DNA of 64,000 nt, taken from the IMG/VR virus record IMGVR_UViG_3300036790_000219, positions 56,058-120,057 of that record; one strand, 5' to 3'. Shown one piece after another: positions 36,342-61,717 of the stretch. Made by a program: the position numbers and the translations under genes. Every line of letters starts with the position of its first letter. Positions within the stretch are counted from its first letter, which is position 1. The DNA comes from a virus. The notes beneath the pieces are model-generated. The model saw nothing but the letters and a program-made list of their open reading frames with translations, did no database searches and had not been told where the DNA came from.

Positions 36342-36376
36342 GACCCCTGGTGCCTCGCGGTGCCGGGGGTCTTTTC
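36342..36376 (+). terminator. Intrinsic terminator ending the late operon
   Basis: GACCCC...GGGGTC hairpin followed by TTTTCATTT, at the strand switch. Confidence 0.7.
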
Positions 36377-38557: not shown

Positions 38558-39628
38558 CTACGCTGCTTCCAGGACTTCAACCCAGTCCTTCTTTGGCAGG
38601 TCGATCAGCCGGTCGCCCATGGACTCAAATTCGACTGCTCGGTCGTAGTTTAGAGCCTTGTGGGCTTGGGCTGTCACAGCGTTGATCACTCCCCACCGTG
38701 ATAGATCAGCGCCTTCGATCAGCGCCGTCAAGATACCACCGCGTTCGGCATCGCTAACGCCGATCTTCTGGGCCAAGACTTCCACGGCCTTGGGGACATC
38801 GCCGGTGATCTTCCCTTCCGTCATTCCCCGAGCCTTTTCGAGCCAACCCTTGAATCGGGTCTCATCAACCACCGCCCGAACCATGTCGCGGATCTTCAAG
38901 AGAATCGCGGCGTCGTCGGCTGCGCGCGTGTCATCCGCCCAGTCGATCTCACCGGTCTCCTGAATGGCTCGGCCAGCATGGTACTTGCGGTAAGCTTCCT
39001 CACCCTTCATACCGTTGAGGCAGAGCAGCCGCCACCGCAGCGCCGACACCGCAGCCGACCCACAACCAACCTCGGAGTTGGAGATCACGCCACCAGCCTG
39101 GACCACGTCGCCCCGCTTGACTTCGCCTTGAACCGTCGGTACGACGAAGTGAATGTACAGCCGCTTCTCCGTGACTTCGGAGGACACGATCTGTACACCG
39201 GGAAGGTCAAACAACACCGGCAACGCCACTTCGGCGATCTCGTTGTTGTCCACGCGCTGATAACGGTTGGAGAGGAAAGCCCGCGCCCGCCCGTGAAGAG
39301 TACGAACCATACGCTTGCGATCATCGGCTTGCAACCAGGTGTTGACGTTTTGCGCAAGCAGAGTAGGCCGTTCGACAAGCATGCGGTCGTAGTACGGCTT
39401 TGGGATCTTCAAGAAGGAACCGACTTGTTCGTGGGCGAGGGGTTGCAATGGGAACGTTCCATTGTCGGGGATGACTAGCGATGTACGAGAAGTACTCTCG
39501 CCGTCTACCGGGCGAACTGATTGGACCGTCATTTGCAACCCACGCGAATCGGCTACGAAGTCCTGCTTCGCTTTTGCGTTCGCGGTGATCTTCGCGGCAA
39601 GTTCATTGAGTGTAATGCCTTTCAACAT
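38558..39628 (-). CDS. DUF932-like protein
   Basis: MVRTL.G.ARAFLSNRY..VDN, GGVISNSEVGCGS, RLLCLNGM, SRWGVINAVT; AGGAG precedes ATG 39628. Confidence 0.8.
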   Translation of the reverse strand: MLKGITLNELAAKITANAKAKQDFVADSRGLQMTVQSVRPVDGESTSRTSLVIPDNGTFPLQPLAHEQVGSFLKIPKPYYDRMLVERPTLLAQNVNTWLQADDRKRMVRTLHGRARAFLSNRYQRVDNNEIAEVALPVLFDLPGVQIVSSEVTEKRLYIHFVVPTVQGEVKRGDVVQAGGVISNSEVGCGSAAVSALRWRLLCLNGMKGEEAYRKYHAGRAIQETGEIDWADDTRAADDAAILLKIRDMVRAVVDETRFKGWLEKARGMTEGKITGDVPKAVEVLAQKIGVSDAERGGILTALIEGADLSRWGVINAVTAQAHKALNYDRAVEFESMGDRLIDLPKKDWVEVLEAA

Positions 39629-39645
39629 TTGCTTTCTCCTGTTAT

Positions 39646-39708
39646 CGGCCTGTCTCATCAGTACAGGTAGGCCATTTCCTGCATACGGCGAACTAGCGCC
39701 GTTTCAAC
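39646..39708 (-). ncRNA. Type II hammerhead ribozyme 1
   Basis: GUU-GAAA-CGGCG(CUAGUU)CGCCG-UA^-UGCAGG(AAAUGGCCUA)CCUGUA-CUGAUGA-GAC-AGGCC. Confidence 0.8.
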
Positions 39709-39825
39709 TAACTACCCCATCTACCAGTGACAATTCTATAGAGGAGGGATCCTAAAATTGCAGTTATAATGAGGCTATTTATAGACCAAATTCCAAGAAG
39801 CCAGCTGATGTAGATGTTCATTTCT

Positions 39826-41639: not shown

Positions 41640-41962
41640 TTGAGTACCTCGTAGATTCCCCGCGACTTGCGGCGGATGAGCTTCTCGCTGAGCATCCTAG
41701 TGGTTGCAGACCCGAGGGACTTCTTAGAGAAGCCCGCCGCAGCTACAATCACCCCGGCCTCAGCGAAGGTGAAGGTCTTCTTGCGTTGGGCATGAAGGGT
41801 CTGAAGAAGAACCTCATGCGCCATACCGGTGGCTTGGACCTTTCCATTTTTCGTCTGTGCCCCCGCCACGGGTTGTACAGACAAGTTGAGTGCCAGCCCG
41901 TCTAGGCTTTTGAGTGTAGGGACTAGCTTCTTGTCATCGACAAAGAACTCTATTCGGAACAC
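41636..41962 (-). CDS. Winged-helix DNA-binding protein
   Basis: C-terminal RMLSEKLIRRKSRGIYEV; similar to 46435..46791. Confidence 0.55.
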   Translation of the reverse strand: MFRIEFFVDDKKLVPTLKSLDGLALNLSVQPVAGAQTKNGKVQATGMAHEVLLQTLHAQRKKTFTFAEAGVIVAAAGFSKKSLGSATTRMLSEKLIRRKSRGIYEVLK

Positions 41963-41989
41963 AACATGCTTTCTCCTTTTGATTAAGTG

Positions 41990-42057
41990 GGCCTGTCATC
42001 GTCAGGCGGAGCTAGGCCAAGTGCTCCACGACCGGGAACTAAAAGCCTGGTTTCGAC
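41990..42057 (-). ncRNA. Type II hammerhead ribozyme 2
   Basis: GUC-GAAA-CCAGG(CUUUUAGUU)CCCGG-UC^-GUGGAGC(ACUUGGCCUA)GCUCCGC-CUGACGA-U-GAC-AGGCC. Confidence 0.78.
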
Positions 42058-42076
42058 TATTTGTTAAACAGTAGAA

Positions 42077-44336: not shown

Positions 44337-44909
44337 TCACCTTCCTCCGTGCCATTCGAGTGTTCCGTTGTTGGGTTGGACGGCTCGCGTTCCCCTTACG
44401 GAAGCGGCGGAGTTTAACCCATAATCACACAAGTATACCCATGCTTCGACTTCTTGCCCATTTGGGAGCAAAAAGTTGTGTAGCTCCCGATGGTAGAAAT
44501 TTGGGTGTCCTTCCAGCCCGTCACAAGCGGCGAACTCTTGAGCATTTACTCGGAAGAGTTCACCTTTGACAGCATGCCCAGTTCCAGCCTTTGCCAGAAA
44601 CGGAAAGCCACCAGAAGTCATCTGATAGTTTGTATCAGCAGAAACGGCTTCGCCTAGGAACGTAGCTTGGCTAAGCAATCGTGAGTAATTGCCGTAGCCC
44701 CGTTTTAGCGTGCCGTAAACGAAAATGGTATACTCTGGGGTATCTTGAACTAGCCAGATACGGGTAAGATGTGGGTACGCCCACCTGCCAGAGAACTTCA
44801 AGCAAGGCTTCCCTTTGGACGCATAGCAATAGGGGCACTCCACCCGGTAGTATCTGGATGTGTTACCCTTGAGGTTGTAGCGCAATGCATAAGTGTTTGA
44901 GCCTGACAT
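44337..44909 (-). CDS. Gamma-glutamylcyclotransferase (AIG2-like) with N-terminal CxxC module
   Basis: IFVYGTLKRGYGN, VKGELF, LEGHP.FY.R, AWVY. Confidence 0.85.
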   Translation of the reverse strand: MSGSNTYALRYNLKGNTSRYYRVECPYCYASKGKPCLKFSGRWAYPHLTRIWLVQDTPEYTIFVYGTLKRGYGNYSRLLSQATFLGEAVSADTNYQMTSGGFPFLAKAGTGHAVKGELFRVNAQEFAACDGLEGHPNFYHRELHNFLLPNGQEVEAWVYLCDYGLNSAASVRGTRAVQPNNGTLEWHGGR

Positions 44910-48183: not shown

Positions 48184-48413
48184 TCAGTTACCTCGCTCAA
48201 GAGACCGGTCCGTAACAACGCGGCTACAAACTCGCTCTCAGAATCTGTTGGGATATAGACACCGGAGGTTTGCCGAACACGCCGCGCCATCTGTTTCATA
48301 AAGGCTTCGGTGTTTGGCTCCGGATCGCGTGACGCGGTGCGAAGCTGACGAATCACATCGCGTGAGTTATCAGCTTCGAATACCGCGCCGTCGTCTGTCT
48401 TGTAGTGTTTCAT
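48180..48413 (-). CDS. Small protein adjacent to amidoligase
   Basis: Coupled to the amidoligase stop; FVAALL..GLL. Confidence 0.55.
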   Translation of the reverse strand: MKHYKTDDGAVFEADNSRDVIRQLRTASRDPEPNTEAFMKQMARRVRQTSGVYIPTDSESEFVAALLRTGLLSEVTE

Positions 48414-49519
48414 GGTACCACCGTACTCACCACATCAACTGTGGGTGGCGAGCCAATCTCACCGTTAGAACCCACCTGCGCTGTTCCTAACGCAACTGTC
48501 CGTTGCTGCCAGAAGGCCTTATCCATATCGTCGAGTTGTAACTTCTCGTATAACTCCACGAGGGACATGGCAACGTGCGAGGGCGCGGTAGAGCCACCGG
48601 AAGAGGCAGTGGGGTCAAGCTTAAACACTTCCCGTCCGTACCGGTGCCCCATCACGACTTCGGCCGCTCCGGCGCGGCGCAAATGTCCTTGAATGTAAGG
48701 TTGAGAGCGAATACCAAGGGCCAAGCGAATATCTTCGGAAGTAGCGCCTTCCTCACGGCTTAGTAACCGGTAGATCACTCGCCGTGCCCGGCCACTTTGC
48801 CAGTACGCTCGCTCACCGATACCGTGAGTACCACCAGCAATAGGCTGGCCCGCTTCACGCACCGCCGTTTCAACCATCTTCGAGCAGAAGATCACCCACT
48901 TGATAATCTTCTGTGCATCAACGGTCCCCGAGTGGTGTCGGAATTCAACCGTGCCGTGTTTCCAATACGCGGTAAAGTTGAGCTTGACGTAGCGGTTGTG
49001 TTCCCCACCAACAGCGCTGGCGATCTCTGTCACCGTTGTAGCTTGGTTGAGCCTCACCATGTCAGCACGGGTTGCATTCGAACCGCAGTACTGATTCGCA
49101 TTGCCGCGCCGTGACGGAGGTAGCAGTTGGTCAATGAGGCACTCGTGTTGAACATAAAGTTCAGCAAGCTTCTTCAACGCCGCCACTGACATGCGGTTCC
49201 GCGCTCCGATGTGGATGTGAAGACCACAGGAACGGTTGACCACCGCGCCGAGTTGTGTCAACACCGCGCCAACCTTCTCAATCTGCTCGAAGTTGGCTTC
49301 GCTTAGCGGCGGTGACACAAGTTCCATGCCCACACCGCCCGGTACGTGCATTGACCGTAACGAACCGTCGGTAACGATCTTCCACCGTTCCCGCTCAGCG
49401 CGGTGTGTGTACCCCGCGTTGAGGCACGACACCCCGGCCGCTTCGATCGCCGCCGCCACGCCAACATACGTTGAACCGGCAGGCGCGATGAACTCAATTT
49501 CTACCCCAAAATCAAGCAT
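48410..49519 (-). CDS. Putative amidoligase (COOH-NH2 ligase fold)
   Basis: FGVEIEF, WKIVTDGSL, ELVSPPL, SCGLHIHIG, RYVKLNF, GTVEFRHHSGT. Confidence 0.9.
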   Translation of the reverse strand: MLDFGVEIEFIAPAGSTYVGVAAAIEAAGVSCLNAGYTHRAERERWKIVTDGSLRSMHVPGGVGMELVSPPLSEANFEQIEKVGAVLTQLGAVVNRSCGLHIHIGARNRMSVAALKKLAELYVQHECLIDQLLPPSRRGNANQYCGSNATRADMVRLNQATTVTEIASAVGGEHNRYVKLNFTAYWKHGTVEFRHHSGTVDAQKIIKWVIFCSKMVETAVREAGQPIAGGTHGIGERAYWQSGRARRVIYRLLSREEGATSEDIRLALGIRSQPYIQGHLRRAGAAEVVMGHRYGREVFKLDPTASSGGSTAPSHVAMSLVELYEKLQLDDMDKAFWQQRTVALGTAQVGSNGEIGSPPTVDVVSTVVP

Positions 49520-59371: not shown

Positions 59372-61717
59372 ATGGCTGCAGACGAACTATCTCCCTCATT
59401 GCAGGAATCAATTTTAGCGGCTCTCATTTTTGATGAGAAAGCAGGCGCGGCTATCGCTATACAGGTTCTGCCCCGCCACTTTGATGAGAACTACCGTCCA
59501 ATAGCAGAACGGGTTCTGGGCTACCGTAGGAAGTACGGGCGTGGTCCTGGCCGCCAACACCTAGATGATCTCTTCGGAAAGCTTCTACACGAAGGCCGTA
59601 CGCCTAGGCTGCGTCGGGTGCTCTTTGGTCTGGCCGAATTAGCTGAGGGTCTAAACGGAGACTACGTTGTTGCCCGAACGCAGGATTTTGTCCGTGAGCA
59701 GCAACTTAAGGCGGCGCTCATTGATGCGAATTCGCGTTTTGAGCAAGGTGGTGAGGGTCTTGCGCCGGATATCGAGGGCATATTTGGCAAGGCGCTCCGC
59801 TACCGTGCCCAGACGTTGGATGCAGGGACCTTCCTAAGTGATACAACGAAGTCGCTCAAGTTTCTAGACCGTAATATTGAGGGGGGAATTTCACTTGGTA
59901 TTCGCGAGCTAGATCGAATAGGTGTCCAACTCATGCCAGGGGAACTTTTGCTTTATATCGGTGCGAAGGGCTGTTTGGTTGGAGAAACCTTAGTGGACTG
60001 CCCTAGGGATCTTAAGAGGTACCCTCGGGGAATCCCTCTTAAAAATTTGGTAGGTAAGAAGTTCCTGACCTATAGCTGGGATACTTGGCAAAACAAGTTG
60101 GTTTTGTCTAGGGTTTTAGACGTGTGGAAGACTGGTGAGAGACCCGTTTATCGGGTGGTGTTGACTGCGTACCCAACGCGAAAAGCTGGTGAATCAGGTA
60201 GACGCAATGGCGGGAAAGCGGTTAGTCCTTATTTGCCTCCCACTGAATTAATTGGAACCTACGACCATCCAGTTCTATTGTGTGATGGAACCTGGAAAAA
60301 ACTTGGAGAATTGACACCCGGATCGTCGTTGAAGTCCTTGTACCGGGGTGGATTGGGATCGCTTTCTACGGTGGGCTTACGTGTTTCTAAAGAGAAACCT
60401 ACAGTTGTTTCTCGTCATTGGTATTGGACAAGTAAGCTCAAAACGCCAATTATTTACCACAGCCTTGGGAGCGCAGTGGAAGAACACCGTTTCGTTTGTG
60501 CGGCCGTGAACGGGCCGTGTTCTGCCAAGTTTCACGCCCACCATAAAGATCGTAATAGCTACAATAACACCCCGGATAACCTTGAATGGCTGAGTGCTCC
60601 GGATCACGCTTCCCACCATCTGCGCTTGCGTAATTTAGAGGGAACTGCCGGTTGGAAAGTCTCGGGGGTACACCCTCGCGGAATGAAGGATAAAACGCAT
60701 TCTTCTAGGACTAAAAAGCGTCAACAAAAGGCGTCAAAGCAGTTGGCGGTAAGAAGACGGCGCGACGGGGCGGGTCGATTTGTTGTTGATCAGGTCAATC
60801 ACAAAGTAGTTTCCGTTGAGTATCTTGGGGTTCGGCCAGTGTACGATATGGAGGTTGAGAACACATCCAATTTTGTTGCTAACGGAGTATTTGTCCATAA
60901 TTCAGGCAAGACTTGGGCTTGTATTCATGTTGGTAAGCAAGCCCTCGTCCAACGTAAGAAGGTCCTGCATATTTCTAATGAAGTTGATGAAGACGTTATG
61001 ACGGGGCGATATTACCAAGCCTTATTTGCTGCTTCTACCCGCCCCGATAAGTATGATAAGACCTTCCTCGAATTTGATAAGTTGGGAAGGCTAGCTGGAT
61101 TTAGAACCCGTAAGGTCTCCCCAAAATGGGACTTCTCTGCGCCCTCTGCTCGGCGGGAGCTCCGTAAGAAGCTACAGCCTTGGGGCACTCGATTAGGTAG
61201 GCTTTGTGTTAAGCGGTTCCCGTCAGGGTCACTGACCATGTCACAGCTAGAAGCCTATTTGGACTTCCTGGAGAGTGAGCACAAGTTCATTCCACAGGTT
61301 CTGATTATTGACTACCCCGATTTGATGGCGCAGGATGTTAAGAACTATCGAATTAGCCTCGGCCGTACTTTTGTGGATATTCGGGGGTTGCTCGGGGAGC
61401 GCAGTATAGCGGGGTTTACGCCTACCCAGGGTAATCGGGCGTCTATAAAAGCTTCTCGTGTAAGTTCAGATATGGTGGCGGAGGATATAACAAAGGTCAA
61501 TACCGCTGATAATGTTTTGACTTATTCCCGCACTGAAGCGGAGAAGCGTCTCGGACTGGCGCGGTTACACGTGGCCCATGCTAGGAATGGTCGTGATGGT
61601 GATGTGATTATAATCACGCAAAGTTACACAACTGGGCAGTATGTTTTGGATAGTGCTCTTATGCAGCAGGCATATTGGACTCAACTCGAAGGCGAAGAAG
61701 GGGACGACGATGAGTAG
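59372..61717 (+). CDS. DnaB-like replicative helicase containing an intein
   Basis: Walker A YIGAKG|SGKT split by intein; VLHISNE; LIIDYPD; TPTQGNR; VAHARNG. Confidence 0.88.
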   Translation: MAADELSPSLQESILAALIFDEKAGAAIAIQVLPRHFDENYRPIAERVLGYRRKYGRGPGRQHLDDLFGKLLHEGRTPRLRRVLFGLAELAEGLNGDYVVARTQDFVREQQLKAALIDANSRFEQGGEGLAPDIEGIFGKALRYRAQTLDAGTFLSDTTKSLKFLDRNIEGGISLGIRELDRIGVQLMPGELLLYIGAKGCLVGETLVDCPRDLKRYPRGIPLKNLVGKKFLTYSWDTWQNKLVLSRVLDVWKTGERPVYRVVLTAYPTRKAGESGRRNGGKAVSPYLPPTELIGTYDHPVLLCDGTWKKLGELTPGSSLKSLYRGGLGSLSTVGLRVSKEKPTVVSRHWYWTSKLKTPIIYHSLGSAVEEHRFVCAAVNGPCSAKFHAHHKDRNSYNNTPDNLEWLSAPDHASHHLRLRNLEGTAGWKVSGVHPRGMKDKTHSSRTKKRQQKASKQLAVRRRRDGAGRFVVDQVNHKVVSVEYLGVRPVYDMEVENTSNFVANGVFVHNSGKTWACIHVGKQALVQRKKVLHISNEVDEDVMTGRYYQALFAASTRPDKYDKTFLEFDKLGRLAGFRTRKVSPKWDFSAPSARRELRKKLQPWGTRLGRLCVKRFPSGSLTMSQLEAYLDFLESEHKFIPQVLIIDYPDLMAQDVKNYRISLGRTFVDIRGLLGERSIAGFTPTQGNRASIKASRVSSDMVAEDITKVNTADNVLTYSRTEAEKRLGLARLHVAHARNGRDGDVIIITQSYTTGQYVLDSALMQQAYWTQLEGEEGDDDE
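59972..60901 (+). mobile_element. Intein (310 aa) with HNH endonuclease
   Basis: Starts CLVGETLV; block B LIGTYDHPVL; HNH HAHHKDRNSYNNTPDNLEWL..H..HH; ends VYDMEVENTSNFVANGVFVHN; +1 Ser. Confidence 0.92.

Follow-up and report, generated by a model that had tools for sequence, protein, structure and literature searches.

Pseudoknotted type II hammerhead ribozymes that flank phage genes have been found to cleave both in vitro and in vivo (PMC3088659; PMC8782182), and it was proposed by Perreault et al. in 2011 that type II hammerheads process polycistronic phage transcripts (PMC3088659). Cleavage in vivo was detected by cyPhyRNA-seq for type II hammerheads near phage-like genes of Desulfovibrio vulgaris (PMC8782182) and was also reported for a triple hammerhead that flanks ardA in Agrobacterium tumefaciens (PMC3088659). 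According to a review, the biological role of such hammerheads is still regarded as open (PMC6765202). The crystal structure of a "PK hammerhead" (PMC11300833) was considered as a direct model for the motif analysed here and was rejected, as its pseudoknot has a different topology and its helix II is replaced.

The present analysis concerns a motif, referred to as copy 2, in a window of 64,000 nt, bases 56058-120057 of an IMG/VR virus record that is 120,057 bp long and bounded by direct terminal repeats; unless stated otherwise, positions are those of the window. Copy 2 shares with the type II set of Perreault et al. an open stem II (2-3 bp in that set), closed stems I and III, a pseudoknot between loop I and the tail, and a location between phage genes, often with several hammerheads per region. 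It departs from that set and from the Rfam family RF02276 in its U after A9, its stem I of 7 bp and the mismatch in its stem III, and in remaining under Rfam detection. The D. vulgaris and A. tumefaciens cases are likewise type II or clustered hammerheads beside phage-type genes, and ArdC-like anti-restriction genes lie downstream of some relatives of copy 2. However, those cases are chromosomal or located in prophages and have been tested experimentally, whereas copy 2 is a predicted ribozyme of an uncultured 120-kb lytic-type phage. In RiboJ-type synthetic insulators, a ribozyme is reportedly placed between promoter and RBS. Copy 2 resembles them in being a hammerhead directly 5' of an RBS, an arrangement by which the translated mRNA would always begin with the same 5'-OH end and hairpin leader, whatever sequence lies upstream. 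In contrast to RiboJ, which is an engineered type III satellite-RNA hammerhead with an added hairpin, copy 2 is a natural type II module with a putative effect on expression.

Copy 2 and its genomic neighbourhood

The plus-strand genes up to about 36 kb of the window encode a major head protein, a tail sheath, a tape measure and tail proteins, which identify the virus as a contractile-tailed phage. A block of small minus-strand genes extends from about 51 kb down to 36.4 kb and contains copy 2; its recognisable members are an amidoligase, a gamma-glutamyl cyclotransferase-like protein and several weak HTH-like proteins (Table 1). Where the structural genes meet this block, a 13-bp GC-rich hairpin with T tracts (36342-36371) was observed, which is probably a bidirectional terminator. 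Promoter and terminator scans performed no better than on shuffled sequences, and a blastn search with 7.5 kb against GenBank phages returned zero matches. Elsewhere in the window, a DnaB-like helicase ORF (59372-61717, plus strand) contains an HNH endonuclease-like segment at residues ~367-460, which separates the N-terminal part from the helicase domain and may be an inserted homing-type element or an intein.

Table 1. Positions of the hammerhead motifs, their parts and the surrounding genes in the window.
Feature	Position	Strand	Remarks
Amidoligase-like gene	48410-49519	-	phrog_2443, E 3e-44; same minus-strand block as the hammerheads
Gamma-glutamyl cyclotransferase-like gene	44337-44909	-	phrog_2520, E 3e-23; same minus-strand block as the hammerheads
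Gene upstream of copy 2, 119 aa	42077-42436	-	Stop at 42079-42077, 19 nt 5' of the ribozyme
Hammerhead copy 2, type II, pseudoknotted, full covariance-model extent	41987-42059	-	R1 53.2 bits, E 2.2e-11
UA, stem II 3' strand GUC (42057-42055), then G12 A13 A14 A15.1 (GAAA, 42054-42051)	42051-42059	-
Stem III hairpin CCAGG (42050-46)/9-nt loop/CCCGG (42036-32), then U16.1 (42031)	42031-42050	-	5 positions, A42048.C42034 mismatch
Predicted cleavage site, after C17 (42030) and before G1.1 (42029)	42029-42030	-	GUC triplet, located where the hammerhead consensus requires it
Stem I hairpin GUGGAGC (42029-23)/GCUCCGC (42012-06)	42006-42029	-	7 bp; 10-nt loop ACUUGGCCUA
Core C3 U4 G5 A6 C7 G8 A9 (CUGACGA)	41999-42005	-	Fits CUGANGA; read from the sequence
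Extra U between A9 and G10.1	41998	-	Aligned by R1 as an insertion
Stem II 5' strand GAC (41997-95) and pseudoknot 3' strand AGGCC (41994-90)	41990-41997	-
Shine-Dalgarno AGGAG (41977-73) and GTG start (41962-60) of the 108-aa gene	41960-41977	-
Gene downstream of copy 2, 108 aa	41636-41962	-	Weak similarity to AbiEi_4 winged-helix domain
Hammerhead copy 1, canonical CUGAUGA-GAC junction, GUA site	39644-39710	-	R1 75.8 bits; predicted cut 39684/39683
Gene after copy 1	38561-39628	-	phrog_1362, weakly DUF932-like

Copy 2 fills the 114-nt spacer between a 119-aa and a 108-aa gene, all three being encoded on the same strand. From its pseudoknot, the distance is about 13 nt to AGGAG and 27 nt to the GTG start of the 108-aa gene. 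A homologue in the viral locus L034 has ATG at the equivalent codon (MFRVEFFVDDKKL), and GTG 41962 is confirmed by this homologue as the true start. An out-of-frame AUG at 41967 opens a mini-ORF of 5 codons (MLCSE*, 41950-41967, minus strand), which overlaps the GTG start; its spacing from the Shine-Dalgarno sequence is better than that of the true start. At the corresponding place copy 1 carries AAAUGUUG, and AUGUUG may have been left over from a cassette common to both.

With regard to class membership, copy 2 displays every defining feature of the hammerhead class and of type II that can be read at the sequence level. The core box C3 U4 G5 A6 N7 G8 A9 is complete. It is joined by G12 A13 A14 and by the A15.1-U16.1 pair, which is invariant in 72 of 72 distinct rows of the family alignment described below; U16.1 is followed by C17, a nucleotide other than G being required there. 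The GUC-GAAA columns to which copy 2 contributes are invariant or nearly so across the family. Three helices are present, with 7 bp in stem I, 3 bp in stem II (GAC/GUC) and five positions including one mismatch in stem III. The G10.1-C11.1 pair can form only if U41998 is bulged, and this residue is read as a nucleotide bulged at the A9/G10.1 junction. The order of the elements is that of type II (stem II 3' strand, GAAA, hairpin III, UH, hairpin I, CUGANGA, stem II 5' strand), stem II being open and stems I and III closed by loops. The loop of stem I includes UGGCCU (42019-42014), of which GGCCU (42018-14) can pair with the tail AGGCC over 5 bp, type II requiring at least 4 bp. The position between cistrons, on the coding strand and with a start codon shortly after the pseudoknot, is that of the subfamily represented by the R1 model. 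On these features, copy 2 is to be assigned to the pseudoknotted type II hammerheads, known in phages and prophages since 2011, as an additional member.

Copy 1 lies in the same block; next come AGGAG and the ATG at which a DUF932-like gene of 356 aa starts. The original prediction, which had listed the motifs of copy 2 together with a cleavage site at 42030/42029, proved correct in all positions when these were read on the minus strand. It had also described copy 2 as having the same pseudoknot as copy 1, and both copies indeed have the layout of a pseudoknotted type II hammerhead. Its statement that the stems of the two copies differ in sequence and still pair, with a single mismatch in stem III (A42048.C42034), holds as well, and the downstream context AGGAGAAAGCA that it considered common to both was found after each of them.

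The hammerhead family and the inserted uridine

A descriptor specifying GAAA, a stem III of at least 4 bp, UH, a stem I of at least 4 bp, CUGANGA, 0 or 1 nt and a stem II of at least 3 bp was applied to both strands of the whole 120-kb genome. It returned exactly two matches, copies 1 and 2, against a chance expectation of 0.05 matches (mean of 100 dinucleotide shuffles). For copy 2, Rfam gave no match at gathering thresholds, nor at E<=10 over 12 kb, nor at E<=10 on a slice of 131 nt. Copy 2 is thus below the 37-bit gathering threshold of RF02276 (Hammerhead_II), which is the operational cut-off of one model and not a defining property of the hammerhead class, and copy 1 is under it too, with 31.3 bits. 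The failure of Rfam to detect copy 2 is partly due to the extra U. As the Rfam model was too narrow for this variant, we built a subfamily model, R1, a covariance model derived from 26 non-redundant hammerheads of other viral contigs and containing no sequence of the window. In the window and in the whole genome, R1 recognised only copy 1 and copy 2. A weak Rfam match of 13.4 bits (G000:C1:24603-24676) was rejected; it lies inside a coding sequence, has no stems and was missed by both the descriptor and R1.

A pattern describing the 3' half of the motif detected 29 loci in a scan of viral contigs; 28 of these loci also contain the independent 5' half, consisting of (UA)GUC-GAAA-C, a paired stem III, GUC and a pairing stem I 5' strand. 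The pattern used to fetch the training loci had been taken from the window copies, which makes the 3' half of R1 partly circular, whereas the 5' half and the stem pairings are independent. The single exception (L030:3406-3485, plus strand) retains the stems, CUGAUGA and the pseudoknot, and its GUC-GAAA box is replaced; it is probably a dead copy. When R1 was run on 100 sources, comprising 99 fetched loci and the window, 75 matches were obtained, many of them extra copies outside both search patterns. The searches show that Rfam Hammerhead_II overlooks a sizeable share of the predicted phage hammerheads.

The alignments indicate that stems I, II and III and the pseudoknot covary across the family. 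When the 26 external sequences are aligned with MAFFT, 97.8% of the cells are paired; both sides have changed in 11 pairs, which belong exclusively to stems I and III. The model-fitted alignment of the R1 family matches gives 99.2% paired cells and compensatory changes in 13 of 15 pairs, a result equalled in none of 500 shuffles, with slid controls at 29-53% paired; this alignment is biased to the structure of the model, and the MAFFT figures are more conservative. It also reveals covariation in stem II, where GUC/GAC is exchanged for GCC/GGC. For the 28 members with tails other than AGGCC, the pseudoknot comprises 5.7 bp on average, compared with 3.7 +/- 0.18 bp for shuffled tails (0 of 1000 shuffles as high), and compensated loop I/tail combinations include UUACCU/AGGUAA, UGACCU/AGGUCA and UCGAGC/GCUCGA. 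The earlier argument that covariation between copies 1 and 2 supports function is upheld at the level of the family but does not follow from two copies alone.

The two copies are not mutual nearest relatives within the family. A recent intragenomic duplication is not supported as an explanation for them, since each resembles hammerheads of unrelated contigs as closely as it does the other copy; only the loop III sequence UAGUU and a shared 11-mer RBS hint at such an event. Among the fetched hammerhead loci, the phrog_1362 gene that follows copy 1 has a sole homologue, in L028 (33% identity). This homologue is located about 5 kb from the ribozyme of its contig, and the copy 1 ribozyme and the phrog_1362 gene are therefore not a fixed pair.

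The original prediction had proposed a reusable unit of ribozyme and RBS, and this arrangement does recur in the family: the start codon, mostly an SD-led ATG, follows the pseudoknot after 10-35 nt in most loci, with a mode of 17-19 nt. In approximately half of the first locus set, the upstream stop codon lies at most 5 nt from the ribozyme or overlaps it. At such loci the conserved UAG of UAGUC-GAAA is the upstream stop codon, and where the stop overlaps, a terminating ribosome would sit on the 5' strand of the ribozyme. Family copies always share the orientation of the genes and often occur in series, many contigs having several on one strand. The contig IMGVR_UViG_3300006104_000014 (77 kb; L003 and L009) contains 12 hammerheads on one strand within 14 kb (record positions 57381-71304), a complete 57.7-kb genome (L010) contains six, and the locus L015 contains seven, which is essentially one per small gene. 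The genes after the ribozymes encode ArdC-like anti-restriction proteins, Mu Gam-like proteins, Mu transposase, anti-repressors, HNH endonucleases and many small proteins, a set that fits early or anti-defence regions and gives indirect support to the early mRNA supposed in the original prediction.

Copy 2 departs from the canonical junction by the U between A9 and G10.1. The presence of this U agrees with the original prediction, and the core position that it occupies (41998) is a tolerated one. It is no peculiarity of copy 2 and marks a frequent subtype of the family. Among the 34 R1 matches outside both search patterns, which are unbiased for the frequency of the insertion, 9 (26%) have an inserted U and none an inserted A, C or G. 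A scan with CTGANGA-N-GACAGGCC, limited to matches positive for the full descriptor, gave 21 cases with U, 3 with A, 1 with C and 0 with G. Two close relatives, L006 and L017, have the same stems, one with the U and one without it.

Insertions at this place are known from other hammerheads. The CChMVd (+) hammerhead has an extra A at this position, whose replacement by U makes trans-cleavage 3-4 fold faster and whose replacement by C or G is harmful (PMC3705267), and hammerheads of Penelope-like elements conserve a nucleotide between A9 and G10.1 (PMC4209133). The likeness to CChMVd lies in a one-nucleotide insertion at the identical core position, and the tolerance measured there matches the frequencies in phages (U>A>>C,G). 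However, the CChMVd and Penelope-like hammerheads are of type III (viroid) and type I (retroelement), respectively, rely on loop-loop contacts and belong to eukaryotic replicons or retrotransposons, whereas copy 2 is of the pseudoknotted type II and would act in phage mRNA. The extra U represents a natural subtype of the family, which is regular and probably benign. The screening rules of Perreault et al. rejected matches with mispairs next to the core (PMC3088659), and for this reason both their set and the Rfam model may contain too few members of the U-insert subtype.

Proposed action of copy 2 and competing explanations

We consider it probable, with moderate confidence, that copy 2 is a self-cleaving type II hammerhead which is held by its 5-bp pseudoknot and cuts polycistronic phage mRNA between co-oriented genes, the cut probably falling ahead of the RBS. 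The minus-strand block would be transcribed as a polycistronic RNA in which the flanking genes are joined. Copy 2 would then fold, its active form being held by the pairing of loop I with the tail, and cut after C42030. The upstream RNA would carry the stem III hairpin and a 2',3'-cyclic phosphate at its 3' end, and the downstream RNA would start with a 5'-OH, followed by the stem I hairpin with the pseudoknot and by an AGGAG exposed about 13 nt further on. Cuts at both copies would free a piece of 2,346 nt (42029 to 39684). Its six or seven genes, which are small and in part HTH-like, would then be carried on an mRNA of their own, with stability and translation uncoupled from those of the neighbouring segments. 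The most economical reading is that co-transcriptional self-cleavage would turn a long phage transcript into gene- or block-length mRNAs, every downstream piece having a 5'-OH and a structured leader right in front of its RBS. This processing role is not a new idea, having been proposed by Perreault et al. in 2011.

Several properties of copy 2 bear on its activity. Its stem III hairpin, at -1.9 kcal/mol, is the weakest of the scored members (one unparsed member aside), the others ranging from about -7 to -22 kcal/mol, and mismatches of stem III pairs are rare in the model-fitted family alignment. Stem-loop I measures 24 nt in copy 2; among the external members, 22 nt is the most frequent length (52 of 70) and 24 nt the next commonest (7 of 70). 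According to Perreault et al. (PMC3088659), even slight alterations in the lengths of the stems near the pseudoknot can slow cleavage by orders of magnitude. Nested minimum free energy (MFE) folding recovered the hammerhead fold for neither copy, nor for most family members, and the z-score was not significant. For copy 2 it favoured a fold that pairs loop I with AGGCU from the 5' strand of stem III (-20.1 versus -14.8 kcal/mol, the pseudoknot not being counted), and the same energy gap toward the alternative fold is found for copy 1 and most family members. Nested MFE folding is uninformative on the hammerhead fold, because it does not model the pseudoknot. The stem III 5' strand AGGCU (42042-42048) mimics the pseudoknot tail AGGCC in pairing with loop I (42014-42018), and A42048, the source of the stem III mismatch, also completes this alternative pairing, which is possibly a misfold or a switch. 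The activity of copy 2 is likely but not assured, and our confidence is lowered by the weak stem III.

No orthologous copy 2 was found among the relatives of the downstream protein, the upstream protein and the tail sheath of this phage. Homologues of the downstream protein (30-35% identity) have no hammerhead, the upstream protein has only two relatives, both distant, from soil metagenomes and lacking a hammerhead, and the tail-sheath relatives are short fragments.

It is conceivable, though somewhat unlikely, that copy 2, although recognisable as a descendant of the family, is in decay or cleaves very slowly and is kept only as a spacer or structure ahead of the RBS. Its mismatched stem III, its inserted U and a stem I longer by one base pair would jointly leave little or no activity, in a class of hammerheads that is sensitive to changes in helix length. 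This explanation would agree with the weakness of stem III, with the rarity of mismatches in the family and with a score that is mid to low among the 75 matches and accompanied by the failure of Rfam to detect copy 2, and the degenerate copy in L030, which has lost GAAA, illustrates that loss does occur. However, all 13 of 13 conserved core nucleotides are intact in copy 2, as are G10.1-C11.1, A15.1-U16.1 and the 5-bp pseudoknot; both the U insertion (26%) and the 24-nt stem-loop I (10%) have precedents in the family, and a weak stem III is common in natural hammerheads. A role mainly as a structure, and not by cleavage, would be in keeping with the presence of two stable hairpins and a pseudoknot directly 5' of the Shine-Dalgarno sequence, which could serve as 5' or 3' protective hairpins, as a ribosome stand-by or insulating fold or as the target of a host or phage RNase. 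Translation and folding could also interact in the many members whose first ribozyme nucleotides are overlapped by the upstream stop codon. This role is nevertheless highly unlikely, as it leaves unexplained why CUGANGA, GAAA and UH are invariant over 75 diverged copies whose helices change freely.

The two remaining explanations concern the pair of copies and the motif as such. Since two ribozymes on the same strand bracket a gene block, copies 1 and 2 might excise the 2,346-nt RNA between their cleavage sites, which an RtcB-type ligase or reversal of the ribozyme reaction would convert into circular or spliced RNA. RNA ends of the 5'-OH and 2',3'-cyclic-phosphate type are substrates of RtcB. 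The idea was raised as a possibility by Perreault et al., who looked for such products and found none (PMC3088659). Moreover, related contigs carry single ribozymes or arrays of up to 12, one per gene, for which serial processing is a better fit, and no ligase gene was noted in the phage under study, so that paired excision is extremely unlikely. The possibility that an intergenic spacer resembles the hammerhead consensus by accident, for which the missing Rfam match might speak, is negligible. It is effectively refuted by the descriptor's expectation per genome and the R1 E-value, and the architecture, including the pseudoknot and the placement relative to the RBS, matches dozens of viral loci. 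Processing of the transcript by self-cleavage of copy 2 accordingly remains the reading that we prefer, at the strength given above.

Implications for phage gene expression

Copy 2 leaves the picture of phage hammerheads drawn in 2011 unchanged. With it, the minus-strand block of this genome has two sites at which RNA is probably processed. The family comparison yielded, as by-products, the frequency of the U-insert subtype (approximately a quarter of the subfamily), the covariation of the pseudoknot and the arrays in which stop codon, ribozyme and RBS form modules, sometimes one per gene across many genes.

Canonical and U-insert hammerheads occur side by side, with one of each in the phage under study and three U-insert copies among the 12 of the 77-kb contig. 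The U-insert hammerheads might constitute a kinetically distinct subtype that phages use beside canonical copies within one operon, such that individual intercistronic junctions are cut at different rates or under different conditions; we regard this as a doubtful proposal. If it were true, the ribozymes would encode a programme of mRNA stoichiometry and stability, gene by gene, in an early or anti-defence block. The paired canonical and U-insert ribozymes provide a natural set that could be used to ask what self-cleavage does in phage gene expression.
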